Part shown: positions 4,462 through 27,926 of the stretch, piece by piece
Layout of the letters: each line of letters opens with the position of its first letter
How positions within the stretch are numbered: the first letter of the stretch is position 1
Assembly (NCBI GenBank): GCA_020722815.1
Contig: DYKB01000065.1
Coordinates: 1 to 38,857 of the forward strand
DNA length: 38,857 nucleotides
From: Caldithrix sp.
Lineage (GTDB): Bacteria; Zhuqueibacterota; Zhuqueibacteria; Thermofontimicrobiales; Sulfurfontimicrobiaceae
Direction of reading: 5' to 3'
Made by a program: the position numbers and the translations under genes
Notes under the pieces: model-generated
Seen by the model: only the letters and a program-made list of their open reading frames with translations
Told to the model about the DNA's origin: nothing
The model's database searches: none

Positions 4462-7400
4462 TTAGCGGAGGAGTAGCATTTTATAGACTTTCTTTAGTGC
4501 AGGCGTCGCGATTGAAGCATAATAAACACCGCTGGGAACAATTTTACCAATCGAATCCTTCCCATCCCAGCTAATTTTATACGAACCCGGAGAATTCCAC
4601 TCATCCCGAAGAACACAAAGCTGGTGGCCAAGGCTGTTATAAATAATGATACGGACCAGACCTGAATTTTCCTGAAAATACCTTATTTGGGTTATTGCAT
4701 TGAAGGGATTTGGGAAGGTCCCAACTGCATATTCTTGGATTATAGACTCCCGGGTATTTTTCAGGTCAGGAGGCGCGGGCGGAAGCAGCGTTAGATTATT
4801 AGGACTTGTGCCTGATATCAACTGGTCAGGATTTAGCGATATTTGAGCAGGACCGGATACGATATTTAAAGTACACTGTTGAGTTGCATAAATCCAATAG
4901 CCTTTCATCGGTTCCAAAAGTGCTGTCCCCGCGGGATAAATGGGAATCACCGATTGTGTATTCGTATCCCATCCATGAACGCTGGTGATAGTACCATCGG
5001 GTTCATCGTTGGGATCGTTAAACGTCACCGGCGCAAGAGGTGAACCGATTAAATGCCAGCCTGGGCTCAATGTTGATTGCAGTTCGTACACCGGAATCCC
5101 TGTAATCGTAAGCGTTTGAGGGCTAGCAACGTGAAGCCAATAGCCGCTATTAGGCAGCAAGCTATCGACCTGTTGATAAATCGTTTGACGATTATTGAAT
5201 ATGTACGCCGCCATATCGTGCGATAAAATTGCATTCACGCGCTGGTTTGCCGGATAAACTGGCACTGAAATAAGATACCAACCAGCTATCGGAAATTCAT
5301 AATTGACCTGAACCGGCCGGGGGGTATAGTCAATCTGAATTAATTGCGCGTGACTGATTTGTGCTGAACTTGAAATCGACATGTCGAGATTCAGATTACC
5401 ACCGCTCAACTGAAAGCAATAATTTTCAATCTGGGGAAGATCGGCAGGCTCCCATGATATTGAAACGGGATTTGCCAATGAATCACCCGTAATTATTTTC
5501 CAGCCGATACTATCGGTGTAAGGCAGGCACCAGGGCTGAATATCCCGAGCTAACGTGTCCTGATCATGTAAGAAAAAATTGGAATACGTCATTCTTACTG
5601 AATCCATCGCTTCATCGAGTCCGGCGTCAAAATCTCTGCTCGCACACGAATCTCCGCCAATCGTCAGATAATAAACAGAATCACCCGTTTCAATTCGGAT
5701 CGGTAACTCCCATTGTGCACCAATTCTACCCCAAATTGGCACCTGAAGAAATCGCTCATCTGAATCATTGCAGACAATTTTAATGAGGCTCTGCTCCTGG
5801 TTGCGACTGATGGCCAGAAAATTAACCCGCAGCGAACAACATTGTCCGGACTCCAGTAAAATGGGCAAAGCATCCAGATTCGTCAGGCGATAATTGGAGG
5901 AATCCAGACGGGTTTCCAACTCAATGTTGAGTAATTGAAGCGCCTGGTTCCCCTGATTAACAATTTTGAGGTATTGTTCTGAAAAAGAGCCCAATTTAAC
6001 CACGCCAAAATCCATTTTTTCGGGAAAAGTCTGAATTTCAGGTCCGAAATTACCAATTTGAAAAACAGAATCACTTTCATCTGAAATTATATCGTCCAGG
6101 CTGCTGATTTTGATTTTGCATTGCTTACTTTCTGGTCCGGAAACCAGCCACAATTCATTCTCATCATTGAAAGTCGAATCCAATAAAGTTTCCCAGCTAA
6201 TTCCATTGTCACGGGTCAATTCAATTTTAATCGCACGATCGTAATTTTTTGCAATCCAGGAAATTGTCTGATTTGAGCCAGGCGACCAAAGGTCTCCACT
6301 TCCCGGACACGTCAGGGAAAGTGATGGCGTGGCGTCGGTTATAAATTTTATTGATAAAGAACCGGTGGTGTTGGCTGCTACCAAAAGCGGCGTCTGTTGC
6401 GAGACAAAAACGCTCTCAGGATTTCGATTTTCATAATTCTCAAACTGCTCAATGGCAAAATAACCAATCCGGGCGGTTTCTGTCGTTGCATTATTTTGAA
6501 CTTTTAAACGCCAATAACCCTGATTTGCTTCGATATATTTGGATAATTCAGAAACATCAAGTACCATAAAATTTGCTGGAAACGAGGAATTACCGCCTTT
6601 TAATTGAAAATCATTAAAAGACTTCGTTTTATAGGTAATGCTTTCATCACAAACATCAATGGAAATCGCACATTGCCCCCGTTGGGGGTGTTGAATTTCG
6701 AAAACAGAAAGTAATTGAGGTTGATAATTTTCGTAATTTTGATAAACCATGTAAAATTTAATGCGCTCTTTTAAACACTGGTATGAAATATAATAAAATC
6801 CATCATGAACCTTTTCCCAATTATAAGTGCCAACGCCCCATGAATTTGCAATTTTGAATGCCCCCCGAAGGTCGGTTTTTCCATTTTCAGGGTAGGGACC
6901 AAAATTATCATCATAACCCACGATAACATTGGCATGATTTACCTCGGTTGCTAGGTAATTATCGGTTGTCCACAGGTCATCATTGGATAATTTTGCATAA
7001 TAACGCGCATCGATGGCAATCAGTGCCAGATTCTGATTGGCAAGTAAACTTTTAAGATTTTGCAGGGCATCATCGGAAGTTAAATCGGTGGTCGCAAAGG
7101 CCGTTGCCGAACGATAAAGGGGTGCTTCGCGCCAGGCTGTTTCGGTAGGCCAGGTGGTGGAATTAAATGGATTATAGGGCATATTTTCCCAGGTGGCACA
7201 ACCGATACGTTCCAGCAGATTCATAGCGTCATAAAAAGTGGCACCCTCATCTTTGCCATCGTTAATCTGGTGATAAATAAAATCTGGCGAAAAAATTTTG
7301 GCATGATATGATGGATCGGGCTGGCCATAATCGTTCTGATTCCAGACACATTTCGAAAGGTCCCATTGGTGTTCGCGTGCTTCCTGGAAGGTTTTAACAT

Positions 7401-7773
7401 AGTACCCACAGGCCCAGCCAATGCAGGAACCTTCACTGTATTGATTACCAATTGGCGGAAACCAGTGGGTCAGGGCATTATCCACCTTATTGGGGAGCTC
7501 CAGCGAAACCGATTGGACATATTCCAATCTAACCGGTGCGCTGGAAATTTCAGCCCACTCACTTTCTGTCGGCGGTCTCAAGCCCGTTCCCTGCCCGAGA
7601 ATCCGCTCATTATAATTTTTTCCTTCCTGGAAAGTACCCAAATATGCTCGTAATTCATCCAATTCTTTTACAGTCAGATGTCTTCTGGTTGTCTTTATGT
7701 GACGCGCAGCCGTCGAAGAAAAAAGTACGAGACAGGTAAACAGGAAAATAGTCCAACGTCGTTTCTGTAACAT
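4462..7773 (-). CDS. Secreted papain-family (C1) cysteine peptidase with a long beta-rich extension and a T9SS C-terminal sorting domain
   Basis: Signal peptide. Catalytic motifs QYSEGSCIGWACGYY (Cys), NHANVIVGYDDNF (His) and NSWGVGTYNW...GFYYISY (Asn/Trp). C-terminus ...SGVYYASIATPALKKVYKMLLLR is a typical Por_Secre_tail. Confidence 0.8.
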   Translation of the reverse strand: MLQKRRWTIFLFTCLVLFSSTAARHIKTTRRHLTVKELDELRAYLGTFQEGKNYNERILGQGTGLRPPTESEWAEISSAPVRLEYVQSVSLELPNKVDNALTHWFPPIGNQYSEGSCIGWACGYYVKTFQEAREHQWDLSKCVWNQNDYGQPDPSYHAKIFSPDFIYHQINDGKDEGATFYDAMNLLERIGCATWENMPYNPFNSTTWPTETAWREAPLYRSATAFATTDLTSDDALQNLKSLLANQNLALIAIDARYYAKLSNDDLWTTDNYLATEVNHANVIVGYDDNFGPYPENGKTDLRGAFKIANSWGVGTYNWEKVHDGFYYISYQCLKERIKFYMVYQNYENYQPQLLSVFEIQHPQRGQCAISIDVCDESITYKTKSFNDFQLKGGNSSFPANFMVLDVSELSKYIEANQGYWRLKVQNNATTETARIGYFAIEQFENYENRNPESVFVSQQTPLLVAANTTGSLSIKFITDATPSLSLTCPGSGDLWSPGSNQTISWIAKNYDRAIKIELTRDNGISWETLLDSTFNDENELWLVSGPESKQCKIKISSLDDIISDESDSVFQIGNFGPEIQTFPEKMDFGVVKLGSFSEQYLKIVNQGNQALQLLNIELETRLDSSNYRLTNLDALPILLESGQCCSLRVNFLAISRNQEQSLIKIVCNDSDERFLQVPIWGRIGAQWELPIRIETGDSVYYLTIGGDSCASRDFDAGLDEAMDSVRMTYSNFFLHDQDTLARDIQPWCLPYTDSIGWKIITGDSLANPVSISWEPADLPQIENYCFQLSGGNLNLDMSISSSAQISHAQLIQIDYTPRPVQVNYEFPIAGWYLISVPVYPANQRVNAILSHDMAAYIFNNRQTIYQQVDSLLPNSGYWLHVASPQTLTITGIPVYELQSTLSPGWHLIGSPLAPVTFNDPNDEPDGTITSVHGWDTNTQSVIPIYPAGTALLEPMKGYWIYATQQCTLNIVSGPAQISLNPDQLISGTSPNNLTLLPPAPPDLKNTRESIIQEYAVGTFPNPFNAITQIRYFQENSGLVRIIIYNSLGHQLCVLRDEWNSPGSYKISWDGKDSIGKIVPSGVYYASIATPALKKVYKMLLLR

Positions 7774-9951: not shown

Positions 9952-12903
9952 TTACTTTTGCTCCGTATAAATCGTCACCATCACTCGCCGATTCAACTGT
10001 CTTCCCAGTGCTGTTTCATTATCCCCAAGGAGAATCTTTTCGTCAGTTGGAGAAAGAAATTCCAGCGGTTCATTTTCACCATGTCCTTCCGGCGCATCGA
10101 TCCGGTGGCGAATTTGATTAAAAATATCCGGATATCGTGATTTTAAATCTTTCACAAATTGCTCATGGAAAATTCTGGCGCGGCGAATGGAAAGAATTTT
10201 ATTCACTCCTTCCGGGCCAACTGCACAGCCATGGCCGACAAATTTGATTCGCTTATCCGGTGACTGTATTAAATGCGGTATCATATCTTCCAGATTTGAC
10301 CAGTAAAAATTATAATACGGTTTGGCCTCGGCAAATTTGGCGATGAGATAATAAGATCGTTCAATATTTGTTTTTTCAGTATTTAAAACAGCATTCTTTA
10401 GTCGGGTGCGAAATTTACGGCCCAATGAATCAGTTAATGTTAATGAATAACCCAGATTTTGAATTTCACCATTAATCTGCTCCTTTAAACGTGATTCAGA
10501 TATTTGCCAATCAAATGGCCTGAAGAGTCGATTTTTAGCAAATTTTGATAAAATACTAACCAGATCGGAGGTTTCATTTAACTCAAGGGCCATAAATGCG
10601 CTTTCAAGCGCAACGGCACTGCTGATTTCACCATTAAATTGGATGGGAAAAAATTCTTTTCGCTTGTTTACCGATTGAACCGGATAAAATAAGACTTTTT
10701 CAATCGATTCTTCAATAGAAATCGTAACGTATCTTCGTTCTTCCAGGATGTGTCGCGCATCGTTTTGATTTTTTGGTAATGTGCGTTTTGCAAGGAGTTC
10801 ACCAGGCATTATCATAATTTGTTCTGAACGAACTCCCAATTTTATCAGTGAATCACGGACCGCCAGGGCGCGCGCGTTCGCCAGATTCACATTTATTTCA
10901 TCAGCGTTGGGATCAGCCGTGCCCTGGAGCCTGACTTTCAAATCCCGCTGCTCATTCAATCTTCTGGCAAAATAGGTGAGCGGCGGCAGAACGGAAGAAA
11001 TTTTCCCAAATTGATTTTTGATAACAGCACTATTTTGCCCGAAAAAGATTTTCCCGATGTAGGGCAACTCAAAAATTTTCGTATAGACTTTTGCTGCCAA
11101 TAGTGTATCCGCAGTAAAGAATCGCCCTTTGGGAATTGTAAAAAACTTTTCTGTTCGCTGTGTATGCAATTTTGTGGTTAAGCTATCTTCCGACTTCACT
11201 ATTTTGGCAGAAATTGCATGTAACCCCGGTGTCGAAGTGTGCCATCCAATGACAACGGCAGTTGAATCACCTGATTTTAAATCAGGAATATCTTTTTTTG
11301 CCATTGCAGGACGAACAGAATGGATCGAATCCGAATTGACCGATTTCTCGGGATTCGCTTTGGCCGGAAAATTATCAAAAAGCTGAAGCTGAAAATTTTT
11401 CGCGACCTTTTCACCTAAATTCTTAATGACAATTTTCAATTTCCCCTGGTAATCATCTTCAGTAATCCAGGAATCCGGTTCAAAAACAAAAGCCAAAATC
11501 TCGGGATCAGGCGCTGTCAAAGTAAAGTTGGCAATTTTATGGCGGCCCCGGTTTGCGAAACGAATATGCTGATCCCGATCATAAGCAAAAACCAGCCAAT
11601 AATATTTACCGGAATTTAACCGGGTGCTCAAAAATTCGGTTTGAAGCAGTCGTTCATTGATATGGAAGTTCATTTTCGGTAATTCATAAATGAGACTGAC
11701 GGGATCTTCCTGACTTTTTTTAATAACGTCCACCAACTTAACGCTATCTTTGCTGGCAAGCAGCCAATAGTTCAAATTATCATAAAGATCAGGATCGCGC
11801 GATGCTTCCCAGCGAAAAGGAACGGCATCTTCATCAATTTGAGCCCCCATTTCAGGCGATTCCATTTGAAATCGCTCGGGAAGCAGCGGTTGATGGGTCA
11901 CCGTCCCATGATAGGGCGCATCAAAAAAGCTATTTTCCTGATTAAGCGCCAGATCAACCCGGAGGGCATTATTTCGGCCTGGAAATAAGTTTTGAAAAAC
12001 CTGATCATTCAGTTGAAGGCTGCCCCCAACCGTTAAATTTCCCAACAAATTATCTTCCAGGCTAAATCCCATCTGAATTGCAATAAAATTCCGCCAGGAA
12101 AGTTCAGTCCCTAACGATAAAAAGCCTTCTTCATCCTTCACCTGACGGTAATCGATACCCGTGCTCAATTGAACTCCCCGATGTGAACCCAGATGCAGGG
12201 CGGTACCCATCCGAAAAGTTTCGGGAAGGGGTGTTCCTTGATTATTGTAGTGAATTTCGTCGCCCAGATTATTGATACCAATACCGGCGGTAAAAATCGC
12301 GTACTCAAAAGCATTAAATGATGCCGACTCAAAATTAATTCTCGGCGAACGAAACAGAATCCCTGTATCAAAAATAACGGCATTGGCATTAAAATCTGCC
12401 AATTGGCTGTTGAAATATTTGATATTAAATCCCCAGAGCAAATTGGGTGTCAGCTTACTTAAGGGTTGACCAATACTCATGGTTGCCACGAGATGATGCC
12501 CACCAACGCCAGCCGTGGTCGCGCGCGCACTATTAAATGTAGGAATTCCCAGATAATTCACCCCCAAAATCATTCGTGTCTGCTGGCTGATGGGATTCCG
12601 CAGTCGACGACCAAAGAGGAAAGTCGTATGATAAATATCCGAAACCCAGGTTGAATAACTGCTGGACCAGAACCATTCACGGCTCAAGCCGGTGGCTGCC
12701 GGATTTGAAAAATAGGAATATGAATAATCGAGTACACTGGTTGTGCTACCGGCCATCCCGACACCGCGTGCATCGGGAACGATTTTCAAGTAGCCAATTC
12801 CGGAGCGAATTTGCCCATAACTTAATCCAAAGATCAGGAGGATGAGACAAAATCCGGTAGTTACATTCTTTATATGGTTTATTTGTATTTTTCTCATGTT
12901 CAC
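9952..12903 (-). CDS. Outer-membrane protein: N-terminal beta-barrel (PorP/SprF- or PorV-like, uncertain), central CARDB-like region, two C-terminal OmpA-like peptidoglycan-binding domains. Putative anchor/partner for the upstream T9SS adhesin.
   Basis: Signal peptide. Aromatic-rich alternating beta-strand N-terminal ~330 aa ending in a C-terminal Phe-type barrel pattern. OmpA-like cores LQGTADPNADEINVNLANARALAVRDSL and FVGHGCAVGPEGVNKILSIRRARIF...APEGHGENEP. 9 bp downstream of the adhesin gene. Confidence 0.55.
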   Translation of the reverse strand: MNMRKIQINHIKNVTTGFCLILLIFGLSYGQIRSGIGYLKIVPDARGVGMAGSTTSVLDYSYSYFSNPAATGLSREWFWSSSYSTWVSDIYHTTFLFGRRLRNPISQQTRMILGVNYLGIPTFNSARATTAGVGGHHLVATMSIGQPLSKLTPNLLWGFNIKYFNSQLADFNANAVIFDTGILFRSPRINFESASFNAFEYAIFTAGIGINNLGDEIHYNNQGTPLPETFRMGTALHLGSHRGVQLSTGIDYRQVKDEEGFLSLGTELSWRNFIAIQMGFSLEDNLLGNLTVGGSLQLNDQVFQNLFPGRNNALRVDLALNQENSFFDAPYHGTVTHQPLLPERFQMESPEMGAQIDEDAVPFRWEASRDPDLYDNLNYWLLASKDSVKLVDVIKKSQEDPVSLIYELPKMNFHINERLLQTEFLSTRLNSGKYYWLVFAYDRDQHIRFANRGRHKIANFTLTAPDPEILAFVFEPDSWITEDDYQGKLKIVIKNLGEKVAKNFQLQLFDNFPAKANPEKSVNSDSIHSVRPAMAKKDIPDLKSGDSTAVVIGWHTSTPGLHAISAKIVKSEDSLTTKLHTQRTEKFFTIPKGRFFTADTLLAAKVYTKIFELPYIGKIFFGQNSAVIKNQFGKISSVLPPLTYFARRLNEQRDLKVRLQGTADPNADEINVNLANARALAVRDSLIKLGVRSEQIMIMPGELLAKRTLPKNQNDARHILEERRYVTISIEESIEKVLFYPVQSVNKRKEFFPIQFNGEISSAVALESAFMALELNETSDLVSILSKFAKNRLFRPFDWQISESRLKEQINGEIQNLGYSLTLTDSLGRKFRTRLKNAVLNTEKTNIERSYYLIAKFAEAKPYYNFYWSNLEDMIPHLIQSPDKRIKFVGHGCAVGPEGVNKILSIRRARIFHEQFVKDLKSRYPDIFNQIRHRIDAPEGHGENEPLEFLSPTDEKILLGDNETALGRQLNRRVMVTIYTEQK

Positions 12904-12911
12904 TCTCGCTG

Positions 12912-15900
12912 CTATCGCACTATCATCACTTTTTTATATGCATTATATGGGTCTGATTTTAAAGTAATGAGATACAGACCACTCCCAACTTTCATTCCAT
13001 TTTGCGTCCACCCATTCCAGTAATAGGTGTTCCATCCTGCCGGATAAAAAGCATCCGTTAATTGCGTCACATGCGAACCCGCCAGGTCATAAACATCCAG
13101 CTTCGCCTGCCGATTCGTACTCAGTTTAAAGTTAATCCCCAGGCTTTCTTCGCTCTCAGGCTGATAAACATTTCGTTCCAACACGAAATCATTGCTGCTA
13201 TATATTTCAACCGAGGTGGAAGAACGCGCCGTATTTCCGGCGATATCAGTCACAATCAATTCAAACCGGATTTCTTCATGATCCGCCGATGAATAAAGCC
13301 GGGTATTCGTATATTTTATCGGAAGGGTAATTTTTATACCCGGTTGAATCATGATTGTCGAAACAAGCTCATCTGCAAAATTCTTTTCTATCTCCCCATT
13401 TGCCAGATATACCCAGATATCCCAGGTTTGAACCGGATTGGAGACCTCGATCTCAATCGTAATCGGCTCACCAACTTCAATTTTTCTGGGCAAAGTTCCG
13501 ATCGAAACGCTTAAATCACCAATTGGTATTTGTGATTGGATATTATACACCGTATCTGTCACACTATTGTTACCGCGATGGGGATCGCCTTCGTTTTGCG
13601 CCTGAATTCTTACCTGATTTATCAACAAATTTTCACCAATCGGCATGATGGCGGGTACCGTCGCATCAAACTGAATGGAAATAGTTGAATCAGGCATTAA
13701 TTGACCGAATTCCCAGACAATTTTACGATTTGCATTTTGAACCGGTGGATGATTAAAATTATTCGTGGTAACAAATTGTGGAATTGAATCAGCTACAATC
13801 AGATTTCTCGCAATACCTTCGGATATATTCTGAATGCGAATGCGATATTGATAAGTTTCACCCGATTTTGCAAAATGAATCGTATCACCGGCAATAATCG
13901 TGAAAGAATCCGTATCAGTAAATTGAATGACCGAAATATCGACCGGCGGCGCGGACTGAATATTGACGACAGTATCGATGACGACATTATTGCTCCGGTA
14001 TTCTTCAGCTTCATTTTGGGCATTTATCACAACCTGATTTATTAATAAATTTTCACCAAGTGGCATCCCAACCGGCACCGTCGCCTCAAAACTGAGGAAC
14101 AGCATTGAATCCGGTCGCAGTCGATTAATTTGCCAGGTTACTTTTCGATTTTCTTTCTGAACCGGTTGAATATTAAAATTACTGACGCTGACAAATTCCG
14201 GTATAGAATCCGTTACCATAATATTTTGTGCAACGCCTTCCAACAAATTTTCTATCTGAATAAAATAGTGGTATGTTTCTCCTGATTTGGCATAATGAGT
14301 TGTATCCCCGTCATTTACAATAAATGAATCGGTTTTCACAAGTTGGCTCACCGAAACATCCACTGGCAGTTGAGGCTGACTTTGAATATTAAAAACTGTG
14401 TCAATCGTGCTATTGTTATCCAGATACTCCGGACTTTCATTTTGGACCTGAATTTGAACCTGATTGATTAACAAATTCTCTCCCAGCGGCATTAAAAATG
14501 GAACTGATGCATTGAATTTGATAAATATGGATGAATCTGGCATTAATTGGGGAATTTCCCAAATTAACTTTCGATTTGTATTCTGATCCGGTGGTCTATT
14601 AAATTGACTCGTTAAAATAAATGCCGGAAGTGAATCTATAATAACGATATTCTGCGCTATGCCTTCCAATTGATTTCGAATCAAAATTTGATATTGGTAG
14701 GTTTCACCGGATTTAACAAAATGAACGGTATCACCCGCCATGATGGCCATTGAATCCGTTTTAATGAACTGAAGCACCGATACATCAACCGGAAATTGAG
14801 GTTGACTTTGAATATTGATGACGGTGTCGACAACGCTATTATTTTTTAAGTACGTACTATCTTCGTTTTGCGCCGACACCTGAACCTGATTAATCAATAA
14901 ATTTTCACCAACCGGCATTATCATTGGCAAAGTCGCATCAAATGTAATTTGAACTATCGAATCAGGTAATAACTGACCAACTTCCCAAATGATTTTTCGC
15001 TTCGCATTTTGAACCGGTGGAATGTTAAAATTTACGACTGTAACAAAATTCGGGATTGAATCGGTAATAACGATATTTTGCGCCACTCCATCCGATGGAT
15101 TTTGAATTCGGAGTTGATAATGGTAAGTTTCTCCCGACTTTGCATAACGTATCGTATCCCCGGCAACAATAGCAAAGGAATCTGTTTTGACATAATGCCG
15201 CACCGCAACATCCACAGGTGGTTCTGGTTCGTTTACAATATTAAATACCGTGTCAACAACACTATTATTACCCAAAAATTCTGAATGCTCATTAGCGGCC
15301 TGTATTTGCACCCGGTTTATTAGCAAATTTTCACCTGTTGGCATTGCCACTGGCAAGGTTGCATTAAAGGTGACAATAAAAATCGAATCCGGCGGTAATT
15401 GATCAATTTCCCAGGTTATTTTTCGATTGCTATTTTGAACAGGTACCTGATTAAAATTATCAACAGAAACAAATTCCGGAATAGAATCAATTATAACGAC
15501 ATTTCTGGCTACGCCTTTCGAGGGGTTTTGAACTAAAACGTGATATTGATAAGTTTCACCTGACTGTGCGTAATGAACAGTATCACCGGAAATTACGACA
15601 AATGAATCGGTTTTGGTAAACTGGGTGACAGAAATATCAACATCGGGAGAATCGATTGGCGCAAATGGAATGGCCATTATATTGGTTTCGGCAAAATTAT
15701 TATCCAGCAGCGAATCAAGCCGGGCAAACACACCACTTCGATTAATGACCTGAAATGAATCAGCAATGAGCGAATCTGTAAGTCGCGCTTGAAATTCCAC
15801 GGCCATCGATTGCCCTGCCAGCAGTGAATCAATCAACCAGAACAGCGTATCCTGTACCTGAGAATCTGGTGATACCGAAAAATTGAATAAATCAACTGAA

Positions 15901-17591
15901 TCCGATAAAATATCCCACAATTTTATTTCATGGGCAGTCACCGGACCCAGATTTTGAATTTGTAATTGATAGCGATACTGCTGTCCCGGTAAAACGACCT
16001 GAATCGAATCGCCATTAATTAAAATTAAGGAATCGGTTTCAACTTCTTGTGATAAGGACAGATCAAATTTATATTCAACCGGCGGTGCTGGTGGATTCAA
16101 AACGGTAATTGAATCTATATCAGTATTATTTTGAAGTGAGGAGTCGTTGTCAACATAAACATAAGCCTGACTCTTCAATTGCGTCATATTCGTAAAATCG
16201 CTATCAGGTAAAAACACGTTAATTTGCAATTCAATTTCATTACCTGGTGCCAATTCATCAAGCTCCCAACTCAGCATTCGGGAGTTAAGTTGGCGGGCCT
16301 GTTCTGAAGCATTTATAAATTGGACATGATCGGGTAAAATATGAATCATTTTCAAATTCCTGGCGATTTCAGCATTCAGATTTCGAACGGTAAGGGTATA
16401 TTGAAAATTATTTCCAGGCTCTACCGCCCGAAGGGTTTCGCCATTCACAACGACAGCCGTATCAGATACAGAACTCAATCCGATTGACACATCGGTAAAA
16501 GGGCCGGTGCCCTGAACAAAATATCGACCGGTTCCTTGGCCGGAGCCTGAAGCCGTATTGACTGTAACATCGACAACGCGCCAGGTATTGTTATACACCG
16601 GATCAGTTGATGTATGGGCCATGATATAAAAATTATGGATTAACTGCGAAAGGTGTCGATAAATATCTTCAATATTCCGATTGGCATCTGTCTGGAAAAA
16701 CAATCCGCCAGTACTATCAGCAATCGCCTTTAAAGTATCTGGATTTGCCCCGGTCCCGTATGCAATTGTAAAAATAGAAGTATTATAGTATAAAGCACTG
16801 TCGACAACATCTTCTTTAGTATAGATTGACGCGTTATCTTCACCATCGGCATATACAATAATCGACCGTTTACCAGTGATATTTTTTAATTGTTGAATTG
16901 CCAGAATCAGGGCATCATAAAGTCCCGTTCGACCTCTGGCCTGAGCAGTGTTTAAAACGGCCATCAATTGTGTCGTATCGGCCGTGATGGGTTGATTCGC
17001 AATTATCTGATCATCAAAGACAATGATACCAACTTCATCATTCGAACGCATCATCCGAACAAAGCTTCGCGCACCTTCAACTGCATTGGTAATCTCTTTT
17101 CGCATACTCCAACTGGCATCCATCAACAGCATGGTGCGAACCGGAATGTCGATCGCCTCACGAATTTCTGTAAATAAAGGCTGAGGTTGTTGAAAAAATA
17201 CATTGGGACTGGCTGGCAAATCGGGATTTTCATGATGATATTCGAGAACAGGCTGCCAGATATCTGAAATGCGTGAACCTATCTCCGCGGTTTCATCGGC
17301 TCCCAACCAGCGAGCAGTATCTGCCAGGCCAGTTATGGGTACCCCCGAACTATCCAGTACCGAGATCGTTGATAAAATTGGAAATGGAAAATCCGCGACC
17401 AGCCCATGGACTTCAAAATCACGATTGAGAGAGATCGTATTAATGCTGACTTTTAATTTTAATAAATCATTATTCTGGGTAAGTGCTTTTTGTGAACCAA
17501 GCAAAATAAAAAATCCAGAAAAAAGTAACAGTATTTGCCGAAAAATAACAAATACATTCTCCAAATGACATCGCTTCCGTGTGATATGCAT
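12912..17591 (-). CDS. Giant T9SS-secreted adhesin: signal peptide, vWA domain with intact MIDAS (LLMDASWSM), at least 7 DUF11 (conserved repeat domain, PF01345-like) repeats, T9SS C-terminal sorting domain
   Basis: DxSxS MIDAS motif. Repeated ~141-aa units GDTxHYAKSGETYxY...ARNxxxxDSIPxF...NRKIxWExxQLxPDSxxxIxFxATxP. C-terminus GSGLYLITLKSDPYNAYKKVMIVR. Confidence 0.8.
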   Translation of the reverse strand: MHITRKRCHLENVFVIFRQILLLFSGFFILLGSQKALTQNNDLLKLKVSINTISLNRDFEVHGLVADFPFPILSTISVLDSSGVPITGLADTARWLGADETAEIGSRISDIWQPVLEYHHENPDLPASPNVFFQQPQPLFTEIREAIDIPVRTMLLMDASWSMRKEITNAVEGARSFVRMMRSNDEVGIIVFDDQIIANQPITADTTQLMAVLNTAQARGRTGLYDALILAIQQLKNITGKRSIIVYADGEDNASIYTKEDVVDSALYYNTSIFTIAYGTGANPDTLKAIADSTGGLFFQTDANRNIEDIYRHLSQLIHNFYIMAHTSTDPVYNNTWRVVDVTVNTASGSGQGTGRYFVQGTGPFTDVSIGLSSVSDTAVVVNGETLRAVEPGNNFQYTLTVRNLNAEIARNLKMIHILPDHVQFINASEQARQLNSRMLSWELDELAPGNEIELQINVFLPDSDFTNMTQLKSQAYVYVDNDSSLQNNTDIDSITVLNPPAPPVEYKFDLSLSQEVETDSLILINGDSIQVVLPGQQYRYQLQIQNLGPVTAHEIKLWDILSDSVDLFNFSVSPDSQVQDTLFWLIDSLLAGQSMAVEFQARLTDSLIADSFQVINRSGVFARLDSLLDNNFAETNIMAIPFAPIDSPDVDISVTQFTKTDSFVVISGDTVHYAQSGETYQYHVLVQNPSKGVARNVVIIDSIPEFVSVDNFNQVPVQNSNRKITWEIDQLPPDSIFIVTFNATLPVAMPTGENLLINRVQIQAANEHSEFLGNNSVVDTVFNIVNEPEPPVDVAVRHYVKTDSFAIVAGDTIRYAKSGETYHYQLRIQNPSDGVAQNIVITDSIPNFVTVVNFNIPPVQNAKRKIIWEVGQLLPDSIVQITFDATLPMIMPVGENLLINQVQVSAQNEDSTYLKNNSVVDTVINIQSQPQFPVDVSVLQFIKTDSMAIMAGDTVHFVKSGETYQYQILIRNQLEGIAQNIVIIDSLPAFILTSQFNRPPDQNTNRKLIWEIPQLMPDSSIFIKFNASVPFLMPLGENLLINQVQIQVQNESPEYLDNNSTIDTVFNIQSQPQLPVDVSVSQLVKTDSFIVNDGDTTHYAKSGETYHYFIQIENLLEGVAQNIMVTDSIPEFVSVSNFNIQPVQKENRKVTWQINRLRPDSMLFLSFEATVPVGMPLGENLLINQVVINAQNEAEEYRSNNVVIDTVVNIQSAPPVDISVIQFTDTDSFTIIAGDTIHFAKSGETYQYRIRIQNISEGIARNLIVADSIPQFVTTNNFNHPPVQNANRKIVWEFGQLMPDSTISIQFDATVPAIMPIGENLLINQVRIQAQNEGDPHRGNNSVTDTVYNIQSQIPIGDLSVSIGTLPRKIEVGEPITIEIEVSNPVQTWDIWVYLANGEIEKNFADELVSTIMIQPGIKITLPIKYTNTRLYSSADHEEIRFELIVTDIAGNTARSSTSVEIYSSNDFVLERNVYQPESEESLGINFKLSTNRQAKLDVYDLAGSHVTQLTDAFYPAGWNTYYWNGWTQNGMKVGSGLYLITLKSDPYNAYKKVMIVR
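13500..15650. repeat. Five near-identical tandem repeats of ~423 bp (141 codons) inside the adhesin gene. More diverged copies extend to ~16500.
   Basis: Recurring strings such as AATTTTCACCAA(T/C)CGGCAT at ~13620, 14050, 14470, 14900 and 15330 (period ~423 bp). Confidence 0.8.
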
Positions 17592-27147: not shown

Positions 27148-27706
27148 GCTTTACCAAACCTTGCGCCTTTTGAGGTCAGTCCAGAATTTGGTTTTAAATC
27201 ACCATTAATTGTTATTCACGCTCCGGGTTAAAGGTTTGGCAAAGCCCACGCGCCGCTTTGCCAAACCTCGCCGAATCACCAACTGGTGAGAAACGCAAAA
27301 ATCGTCCTGAAAAGCCGAAACGTGGTTTGTGAATCTGGTTTGGTAAAGCTTGAGCTGCGTAAAAACCTCGAGTACAAGCTTTACCAAACCTTGCACCTTT
27401 CGGGGTCAGGTCAGGATTGGTTTTTAAATCACCATTAATTGTTATTTACGCTCCGGGTTGAAGGTTTGGGAAAGCTTATTCACCGCTTTGCCAAACCTCG
27501 CCGAATCACCAACTGGTGAGAAACGCAAAAATCGTCCTGAAAAACCGAAACGTGGTTTGTAAATCTGGTTTGGTAAAGCTTGGGGTGACCTGAGAGCTTG
27601 GGAAAAAGCTTTACCAAACCTTGCGCCCTTTGTGGTATGGTCAGGTATTGCTTTTAAACCACCTTCAGATATTCAATGACATTCCGGATTATAGGTTTGG
27701 CAAAGC
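27148..27706. repeat. Tandem array (2.4 copies, period 230 bp) of a ~202-bp unit bounded by inverted 13-mers GCTTTACCAAACC ... GGTTTGGTAAAGC, with an internal hairpin GGTTTGGCAAAGC-N10-GCTTTGCCAAACC
   Basis: Units at 27148..27349, 27378..27579 and 27608..~27706. The 28-bp spacers between units differ. Confidence 0.8.
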
Positions 27707-27715
27707 TCCCTGCTT

Positions 27716-27832
27716 TACTATCATCGCGCAATGTTTTGCATTAAATTCATTTTGCATCGCTATCATCGCGCACTGTTTTGCATCAAAATTATTTTGCATA
27801 GCTATCAACGCCCAATGTTCAGAATTTAGAAC
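27716..27832. repeat. About 2.7 copies of a 42-bp tandem repeat (TCATCGCGCAMTGTTTTGCAT + YAAATTCATTTTGCATMGCTA)
   Basis: Read directly. It also generates a spurious Cys/Ala-rich ORF at 27621..27860. Confidence 0.7.
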
Positions 27833-27926
27833 GCTTTGTTTTGTTGAAAATGGCCTTTGATTGAAAGTAAGTATTCAGTTTAGTTTAAAGATTATGCTTT
27901 TTCAGGGAGAGTTTGCAAAAATTTAT

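Follow-up and report, generated by a model that had tools for sequence, protein, structure and literature searches.

Five anciently duplicated CLIPPER units, with two older ones, as the probable stalk of a KSB1 cell-surface protein

A gene for a 1559-aa protein on a contig of Caldithrix sp. (DYKB01000065.1, assembly GCA_020722815.1) carries five tandem CLIPPER units that are anciently duplicated and evolve independently, and these units, together with two older ones, in all probability form the stalk of a KSB1 cell-surface protein. The window analyzed here is the whole stretch of 38,857 nucleotides from that contig. An earlier note on this DNA had described five tandem in-frame units inside an adhesin gene, and both points are borne out: the units lie within the minus-strand ORF 12912..17591 and span positions 13524-15647 of the window, very close to the interval given in the note. 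The ORF encodes an adhesin-like surface protein with a von Willebrand factor A (VWA) head, a CLIPPER/DUF11 stalk and a type IX secretion system (T9SS) sorting tail. The copies had also been taken for near-identical, and the locus for a hotspot of contraction and expansion prone to assembly collapse; these claims fail on the sequence of the units and on their number in close relatives. In-frame periodicity in the gene of a surface protein is not enough to make the locus hypervariable, since it is the DNA identity between the units that decides. That identity is far too low here, and the gene is therefore taken as correctly assembled and as encoding a fixed stalk of five units (seven in total).

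The borders of the units were set from protein anchors (Table 1). The repeat period is 426 nt (142 codons) in four units and 420 nt in U4, rather than the 423 bp given before, with the single 420-nt spacing in the array arising because U4 has 140 codons. In the autocorrelation of the sequence, lag 423 gives a background-level match of 0.256, while lag 426 gives 0.549 vs. 0.281 +/- 0.011 in 1000 codon shuffles (z = 24.8). Tandem Repeats Finder did not report the array, either at default settings or at a minimum score of 30. The program has a limit of about 70% identity and the units lie below it, so ungapped family detection, autocorrelation and protein anchors were used. With units of 142 or 140 codons, the deletion or duplication of one unit preserves the frame, as had been proposed. 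Upstream of the five units lie U0 and CLIPPER-type unit 1, which are far more diverged and share the same fold, bringing the protein to seven units.

Table 1. Features of the surface-protein gene and its partner (window coordinates), with the counterparts of the units in the 66%-identical sister lineage (P0002).
Feature	Position	Strand	Description	Counterpart in P0002
Whole gene	12912..17591	-	1559 aa; from ORF list and translation	
Signal-peptide-like N-terminus	17478..17591	-	aa 1 to about 38 (MHITRKRCHLENVFVIFRQILLLFSGFFILLGSQKALTQ); basic residues, then hydrophobic stretch	
VWA domain	16554..17177	-	aa 139-346; TIGR03436 83.3 bits (cutoff 81.25)	
CLIPPER-type unit 1	16104-16493	-	aa 367-496; unit HMM 52.0 bits; diverged; V/H/S instead of triad	
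U0, CLIPPER-type	15648-16073	-	aa 507-648; 43-47% DNA identity to U1-U5; Glu in Lys position	
U1	15222-15647	-	aa 649-790, 142 codons; Lys/Asp/Asn triad present	u3, positional ortholog; 73% DNA identity, 83% bootstrap
U2	14796-15221	-	aa 791-932, 142 codons; triad present; unit used for modeling	u4 and u5, co-ortholog; 76% and 75% DNA identity, 94% bootstrap
U3	14370-14795	-	aa 933-1074, 142 codons; triad present	u6, ortholog; 71% DNA identity
U4	13950-14369	-	aa 1075-1214, 140 codons; triad present	u7, closest match; 72% DNA identity
U5	13524-13949	-	aa 1215-1356, 142 codons; Asp in Lys position	
Ig-like beta-sandwich domain	13143..13523	-	aa 1357 to about 1483; between repeats and sorting domain	
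T9SS type A sorting domain	12915..13142	-	aa 1484-1559, end ...KKVMIVR; TIGR04183	
Partner gene	9952..12903	-	downstream, co-directional; PorV/PorQ-family outer-membrane barrel + two OmpA-like peptidoglycan-binding domains	

The protein is ordered as a signal-like N-terminus, an N-terminal region, the VWA domain, seven CLIPPER/DUF11 units, an Ig-like domain and the T9SS type A sorting domain. Judged from its residues, the N-terminus is a putative signal peptide. The VWA domain also matches PF13519 (VWA_2; 47.3 bits, cutoff 27, aa 153-251), its translation features the MIDAS-type DxSxS motif LLMDASWSM (DASWS), and it is presumed to be a ligand-binding head. The C-terminal 204 aa were modeled with AlphaFold2 (pLDDT 88) as two beta-sandwiches, for which a fold search returned generic two-Ig-domain PDB matches, with PorU at rank 3. 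These matches are not specific for a T9SS tail, and the HMM result was used instead: against a cutoff of 23, TIGR04183 reaches 20.6 bits when run on the full protein and 23.5 bits when run on the 204-aa C-terminus alone, a marginal pass, and this HMM is matched by 13/13 homologs (best E 7.3e-8).

All seven CLIPPER stretches of the protein are covered by the Pfam family DUF11/CLIPPER (PF01345; 199.5 bits vs. a gathering threshold of 24.6), and the NCBIfam model TIGR01451 scores 116.9 bits on the 1559-aa protein (cutoff 24). The AlphaFold2 model of U2 (pLDDT 91) is all-beta, and its best PDB match in Foldseek is 9IFR (E 1.3e-5, TM 0.74 target-normalized), the solved CLIPPER domain of Acinetobacter silvestris B9T28_05395 (PMC12617251). 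From this model, the units are predicted to have a CnaA-like Ig beta-sandwich fold. Searches of PDB sequences with a single unit and with a 19-sequence profile did not reach any CLIPPER structure and gave only chance hits (E >= 0.13); 9IFR was reached via the canonical DUF11 repeats of the family member P0015, Foldseek and hhalign.

In CLIPPER domains, an intramolecular Lys-Asn isopeptide bond catalyzed by Asp is found in many, not all, members and confers thermal and protease stability (PMC12617251). The hhalign alignment (97% probability) places K12/D54/N111 of the units opposite Lys715, the catalytic Asp and Asn806 of 9IFR, with low per-column confidence in the N-terminal part, which holds the Lys. 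This candidate triad is complete in U1-U4 and incomplete in U5, U0 and unit 1. Across the window and P0002 it is found in 9/11 amplified units, and it occurs in 0/61 other units of the family. As the triad aligns with the isopeptide residues of a solved CLIPPER domain, the four units that carry it may be covalently cross-linked. In all other members of the family, the homologous single-copy unit lacks the Lys, so this position could also be a variable surface residue of the ordinary kind.

Directly downstream of the gene lies a co-directional partner gene, whose product matches NF033709 over aa 36-299 (94.4 bits, cutoff 90) and has OmpA hits over aa 617-730 and 870-978. The two genes are separated by a gap of 8 nt in which a terminator scan found no terminator-like site. 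Among related loci, the partner is kept after the gene in L001, L002, L003, L007, L009, L010 and L011 and is missing in L005. None of the core T9SS genes SprA/Sov, PorK-N and PorU lies within the 38.9-kb window, and a second protein with a Por_Secre_tail-like end is encoded at 4462..7773.

From these domains we infer the following route of secretion, anchoring and stalk function. Export of the protein would begin with Sec and continue with the type IX secretion system, by way of the type A sorting domain at the C-terminus. It would be attached to the outer membrane by its C-terminal end, possibly aided by the PorV-like/OmpA protein, with which it may be co-transcribed. The N-terminal VWA domain (MIDAS) would then be shown at the far tip of a rod of about seven Ig-like domains, in which U1-U4 may gain mechanical and proteolytic stability from covalent cross-links. 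A more ambitious version, which we consider unlikely, is that cargo and PorV/PorQ-like/OmpA barrel form a dedicated two-gene T9SS module of KSB1, in which the cargo is tethered to peptidoglycan via its partner and slow, lineage-specific amplification of the newly triad-bearing CLIPPER unit sets the length of the stalk.

It is also conceivable, though we regard it as quite unlikely, that each unit is a ligand-binding or cell-cell interaction module and that amplification raised avidity, not reach. The ratio dN/dS between units is 0.12-0.19, indicating purifying selection on each copy, and this selection would suit a binding module, as would invariant residues beyond the needs of the fold (e.g., D4, T13, N41, N119-E120 and N128) and the amplification of one specific unit type, which corresponds to the last unit of relatives. 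DUF11 proteins of Methanothermobacter have, in addition, been reported to stabilize cell aggregates (PMC12617251). Against such a role, no binding site or ligand is identifiable in the units, the conserved Asp and Asn residues are equally explicable as structural or metal-binding contacts between domains, and published CLIPPER domains are described as stalk-forming, typically as the stalks of fibrillar adhesins (PMC12617251).

In favoring a stalk of fixed length, much weight falls on the divergence among the five units. Their pairwise identity is only 63-67% in DNA and 57-65% in protein, falling to 44-52% at third codon positions. Synonymous sites between units are saturated (dS 1.6 or more), with dN at 0.27-0.33, and no exact repeat in the gene exceeds 19 nt. 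Homologous recombination requires tens of bp of identity, and at about 20% divergence its frequency is lower by orders of magnitude (PMC4824099). With the divergence they have reached, the units can no longer recombine homologously, slip in replication or collapse in assembly. Programmed variation by a diversity-generating retroelement, an invertase or another system was considered and rejected, as the ORFs of the window include neither a reverse transcriptase nor a recombinase, no 21-mer of the gene has a second copy in the window, and the substitutions in U5 lack an adenine-specific bias; separately, no RNA family was detected when the whole window was scanned against Rfam.

Comparison with relatives places the duplications far back in time. 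The window units are closer to their positional counterparts in P0002 (70-76% DNA identity) than to their own neighbors (62-68%), and in a neighbor-joining tree the amplified units form one clade in which they are grouped by position. This grouping with the P0002 units indicates that the array is older than the split between the two lineages and that its units have not been homogenized. The amplification took place in the common ancestor of the window lineage and its 66%-identical sister, with only one unit gained or lost since then. In the sister lineage there are six units of the amplified type vs. five in the window, and the four full-length proteins of the sister cluster all have a length of 1697 aa. 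Across the family, which includes paralogs, the number of units ranges from 2 to 8, a range consistent with only slow gain and loss. More recent amplification is seen in P0003 (locus L003), where two units share a 57-nt exact repeat and 85% protein identity.

Among close relatives the number does not change. Across the 4680 nt of the gene, three assemblies (JGI, Logan) show 0-1 mismatches to the window, with equal length and all five units, and the exact protein is on record from both JGI and NCBI/Logan. The gene of the MAG GCA_016932535.1 is 94.8% identical, without gaps over 3153 nt, and also has five units. Cluster mates at about 90% identity are named 'candidate division KSB1 bacterium.' The comparison of strains that the earlier note had proposed thus reveals no variation in unit number among relatives that are at least 90% identical, in a sample that is small and made of metagenome assemblies, probably all short-read, from which rare length variants within a population would escape. 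Scanning metagenome contigs for further close relatives yielded nothing, and a genome scan returned only 29-43%-identical relatives. Of the supposed length variability, what stands is that the number of units has changed in the course of evolution, as the six units of the sister and the range within the family attest; what does not stand is variation among close relatives. Repeat number is an evolutionarily slow character.

These observations bear directly on the idea of a length-variable adhesin of the Periscope type, in which near-identical DNA repeats recombine or slip often and unit number differs between strains and cells. The layout of head, tandem array of folded domains and C-terminal anchor fits this idea, the units are in frame, and the additional unit of the sister lineage, the family range and the recent amplification in P0003 can be counted in its favor. 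The screen that defined Periscope Proteins sought repeats of >50 aa with 80% or more protein identity, their high DNA identity permitting intragenic recombination (PMC8201768), and the units here fall well short of this criterion. Their longest exact shared run is below what recombination needs (PMC4824099), their synonymous sites are saturated with no sign of concerted evolution, and length is constant among relatives at 90% identity or more. With 33-37% divergence between units added to these points, the contraction/expansion hotspot is not upheld, and we judge a Periscope-type adhesin to be very improbable.

Least probable of all, and scarcely credible, is an assembly artifact in which a short-read assembler collapsed or expanded the real number of units: the source is a metagenome-assembled contig, related genes often end at contig ends (6/7 loci of the genome scan) and the gene is split between aa 486 and aa 510 in GCA_016932535.1, but this break is upstream of the five units, no 21-, 25- or 31-mer of the gene recurs in the whole window on either strand and thus de Bruijn assemblers face no ambiguity, each unit is distinct in sequence with its own ortholog in P0002, and the three assemblies, together with the 95%-identical genome without an indel, agree on five units. 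The risk of assembly collapse raised earlier is hence not apparent in this gene.

One unit is unusually diverged between close relatives. U5 has 85% DNA identity to its counterpart in the 95%-identical MAG vs. 94-98% for the other units (dS 0.38, dN 0.11). Its substitutions comprise 38 transitions and 25 transversions, and an adenine-specific bias is absent beyond the ordinary excess of transitions. Gene conversion from a paralogous unit was considered as a cause and rejected: a donor search that covered the units of the window, L002 and P0002 found none, with the best unit matching at most 32/63 differing sites for either allele.

Taken together, the anciently duplicated stalk provides a dated domain amplification followed by a long independent divergence of the copies. 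Such divergence after amplification is usual for multidomain proteins and is the opposite of the Periscope pattern. The gene also adds, from KSB1, a T9SS protein that combines a VWA head with a CLIPPER stalk and has a conserved PorV-like/OmpA partner.

The closest known counterparts are the stalks of CLIPPER adhesins, with which the protein shares a strong Pfam match in seven stretches, a predicted CnaA-like Ig fold and the placement of tandem units in mid-protein, with a putative signal peptide and the adhesive domain before them and a sorting domain after them. Residues aligning with the Lys/Asp/Asn isopeptide triad of 9IFR are present in four units. The units are longer than those of known CLIPPER domains, at 142 aa vs. 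about 114-120 aa, because an extra beta-hairpin follows the first strand. Sequence identity to 9IFR is about 14-20%, and 3/7 units lack the triad. The host, candidate division KSB1, the VWA head and the T9SS-tail anchor likewise set this protein apart from the known CLIPPER example.

The likeness to T9SS type A cargo of Bacteroidota/FCB lies in the TIGR04183 sorting domain and in the T9SS-family barrel gene immediately downstream. In Flavobacterium, SprB is a cargo with a cognate outer-membrane partner that is SprF/PorP-like. The present pair differs in having a partner of the PorV/PorQ rather than the PorP/SprF family, with two OmpA-like domains fused to it, in a cargo tail of type A, not type B, and in coming from KSB1. 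The head resembles VWA surface proteins of the acidobacterial type (TIGR03436) in scoring above cutoff and in its MIDAS-type DxSxS motif. It differs from BatA/BatB-like VWA proteins, whose BatA-type models reach 35.8 vs. a cutoff of 380, and neither family has the long CLIPPER array and T9SS tail found here. The Periscope Proteins, which include SasG, Rib/alpha C, Sgo_0707 SHIRT, Esp and CdrA, also project an N-terminal functional domain from a C-terminal anchor by means of tandem folded domains whose number differs among relatives, and the repeats of Sgo_0707 are 82-100% identical (PMC8201768). In contrast to these proteins, the KSB1 stalk has a repeat identity of 57-65%, and its number of units is constant among close relatives.

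The repeat-bearing gene contains a genuine array of five in-frame units with a period of 426 nt (142 codons), one unit having 140 codons. Autocorrelation maxima fall at a lag of 426 nt and its multiples, and the match at this lag within the array is 0.549 as opposed to 0.281 ± 0.011 in codon-shuffled controls (z = 24.8), while the match at a lag of 423 nt is at background (0.256); the periodicity is thus genuine, with a period of 426 nt rather than the 423 bp given in an earlier note. An ungapped repeat search recovered five to six in-register copies at 60–80% identity, with start-to-start distances of 420, 426, 426, and 426 nt. Tandem Repeats Finder, run with a maximum period of 500 nt, reported no array at 13500–15650, even when the minimum score was lowered to 30. 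Unit boundaries set from protein anchors span essentially this interval, in agreement with the five in-frame units of that note.

Coordinates of the repeat-bearing gene, its amplified units, and the downstream partner gene in the window
Feature	Position	Strand	Basis or description
Repeat-bearing ORF	12912..17591	minus	4,680 nt, 1559 aa
U1	15222-15647	minus	protein anchors
U2	14796-15221	minus	protein anchors
U3	14370-14795	minus	protein anchors
U4	13950-14369	minus	protein anchors
U5	13524-13949	minus	protein anchors
PorV/PorQ-family outer-membrane barrel with two OmpA-like peptidoglycan-binding domains	9952-12903	minus	983 aa; barrel 94.4 bits, cutoff 90

The units are old duplicates, every copy of which is under purifying selection. 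Pairwise identity among U1–U5 is 63–67% in DNA and 57–65% in protein, with 44–52% of third codon positions and 71–77% of first and second positions identical, and Nei-Gojobori estimates give dS from 1.6 to saturation, dN of 0.27–0.33, and dN/dS of 0.12–0.19. The longest exact direct repeat within the whole gene is 19 nt, and none of its 21-, 25-, or 31-mers recurs in the gene or in the rest of the window on either strand. Identities, dS, and the shortness of the exact repeats therefore show the earlier description of near-identical copies to be wrong.

Unit number is the same among close relatives. The gene recurs at equal length in two other assemblies, differing from the window at 1 of 4680 nt in a JGI metagenome and at none in the Logan assembly of SRR1559028. 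The related-strain MAG GCA_016932535.1, which carries the gene from aa 510 to its end, aligns at 94.8% identity over 3153 nt with zero gaps; a comparison of strains is the check that the earlier note had proposed. In this MAG the gene is broken in two (P0017/P0018), the break lying on the upstream side of the five-unit array, between aa 486 and 510, and a contig end cuts the homologous gene in six of seven related genome loci (L012, L013, L014, L016, L017, and L018). Such cut genes may reflect assembly-breaking repeat similarity in some relatives, or strain heterogeneity.

The next relative is the sister-lineage protein P0002 (66% protein identity, 1697 aa, six units of the amplified type), and every full-length sequence in its 90% cluster, four in all, is likewise 1697 aa long. 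DNA identity between the two arrays follows position: 73% for U1-u3, 76/75% for U2-u4/u5, 71% for U3-u6, 72% for U4-u7, and 70% for U5-u8, u4 and u5 together being the counterpart of U2, as compared with only 62–68% between paralogous units. In a bootstrap tree the amplified units all form one clade, sorted by position. This match by position shows that an array of at least five units is older than the split of the two lineages, and within neither array have the units homogenised one another. The lineages differ by one unit, while the flanks have diverged to 69–83% protein identity.

U5 alone among the units is only 85% identical to its counterpart (2116-2541 of locus L002) in the 94.8%-identical MAG. 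Between window and MAG its dS is 0.38 and its dN 0.11, as opposed to 0.05–0.16 and 0.01–0.04 in the neighbouring units. Because both are raised, a separate history, such as an imported allele, is suggested rather than selection alone; no donor is evident among the paralogous units.

In the wider family (33–41% identity), 2, 3, 4, 5, 6, 7, or 8 units occur between constant flanks, a range that is not purely orthologous variation since one genome holds two family members and paralogs are therefore included. That genome, GCA_964498785.1, encodes P0006 (7 units, without a partner gene) and P0011 (4 units, with a partner) at L005 and L007. The type of unit amplified differs between lineages, and unit number in the family evolves, slowly. 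In P0003 (L003 710-5758, JGI 3300017613), a different unit type is amplified with a period of 417 nt; within the gene a 57-nt sequence recurs exactly, 63 of the 31-mers are repeated, and two units share 85% protein identity. This expansion is more recent, and P0003 is a better candidate for true length variation than the window gene.

The encoded protein is adhesin-like, as had been proposed, with a VWA domain, a CLIPPER array, and a T9SS sorting domain. Pfam places DUF11 (PF01345, now named CLIPPER) in seven stretches (199.5 bits), together with the VWA domain and, weakly, a FlgD_ig-like C-terminus, and NCBIfam adds a DUF11-type repeat and, over cutoff, an acidobacterial-type VWA domain, in which a DxSxS MIDAS-type motif is present. 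The T9SS type A sorting domain scores slightly under cutoff on the full-length protein and 23.5 (cutoff 23) on the isolated C-terminal 204 aa, and its model is matched by 13 of 13 family members. An AlphaFold2 model of U2, built from a 19-unit alignment, is all-beta (pLDDT 91), and of the solved structures the CLIPPER domain 9IFR matches it best (E 1.3e-5, TM 0.74). CLIPPER domains frequently contain a Lys-Asn isopeptide bond that confers thermal and protease stability (PMC12617251). Profile-profile alignment (97% probability) places Lys12, Asp54, and Asn111 of the unit onto Lys715, the catalytic Asp, and Asn806 of 9IFR, and from this aligned triad such a bond is possible in the window units. 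The triad is complete in U1–U4; Lys is replaced by Asp in U5 and by Glu in U0, a diverged upstream unit, and unit 1, the other upstream unit, lacks all three residues. Among 72 CLIPPER-type units of 13 family proteins, complete triads occur only in amplified units of the window lineage (U1–U4, 13950-15647) and its sister (P0002 u4–u8, L001 3161-8254). The Lys position holds T, E, A, R, M, L, or Q in the homologous single-copy unit of other relatives, and in U5, the only one of U1–U5 without Lys, it is Asp in the window, Asn in the MAG, and Lys in P0002.

The PorV/PorQ-OmpA gene begins 8 nt downstream, with no terminator-like site found between the two genes. A partner of ~965–1036 aa follows the VWA-CLIPPER gene in L001, L002, L003, L007, L009, L010, and L011 and is absent in L005, which suggests a dedicated cargo/partner pair. 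We infer the functional model of the window protein as a whole: export would probably run through Sec and T9SS, the C-terminal end would hold the protein at the outer membrane, and seven Ig-like units would form a stalk with the VWA head at its tip. Five of these units stem from this amplification, and four of the five are possibly isopeptide-locked. The conserved partner may act as a shuttle or tether for the cargo, linking it to the cell wall. Alternatively, the repeat units themselves could bind something.

The surrounding genes are ordinary chromosomal ones, with no mobile or programmed-variation functions among them, and cluster mates of the window protein are named 'candidate division KSB1 bacterium'. 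A second large probable T9SS cargo lies close by (4462-7773, minus, 1103 aa); it contains a choice-of-anchor-D/HYDIN-like Ig domain, and its C-terminus resembles Por_Secre_tail (21.8 bits, cutoff 23); its gene adjoins the locus in L002 too. Elsewhere, an intergenic region (27148-27836) between a 133-aa ORF without a Pfam match and an RnfD-like gene holds 2.4 copies of a 230-nt unit at ~87% identity, each containing the inverted repeat GCTTTACCAAACCTT ... AAGGTTTGGCAAAGC, followed by three 42-nt repeats; the region has no Rfam match.

Homologous recombination depends on identical stretches tens of bp long and becomes orders of magnitude rarer as sequences diverge; the minimal efficient processing segment of Bacillus subtilis exceeds 40 bp, and by 20.8% divergence transformation is reduced up to ~45,000-fold (PMC4824099). 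Given 33–37% divergence between units and at most 19 nt of identity, together with the unchanged number in close relatives, a contraction/expansion hotspot is rejected. Assembly collapse is likewise not a risk here, because the divergence and the lack of long identity leave no ambiguity for an assembler at k ≥21, with which the agreement of separate assemblies fits. What stands of the earlier interpretation is an adhesin-like gene whose unit number changed over long evolutionary time. Periscope Proteins, the kind of length-variable surface protein that the earlier note had in mind, were defined by repeats of >50 aa with identity ≥80%, and their mechanism is explicitly linked with both high DNA identity and strain-to-strain variation (PMC8201768). 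Although both high repeat identity and strain-to-strain number variation are missing in the window array, it shares the Periscope architecture. The window protein is a CLIPPER-stalk surface protein, a known class.
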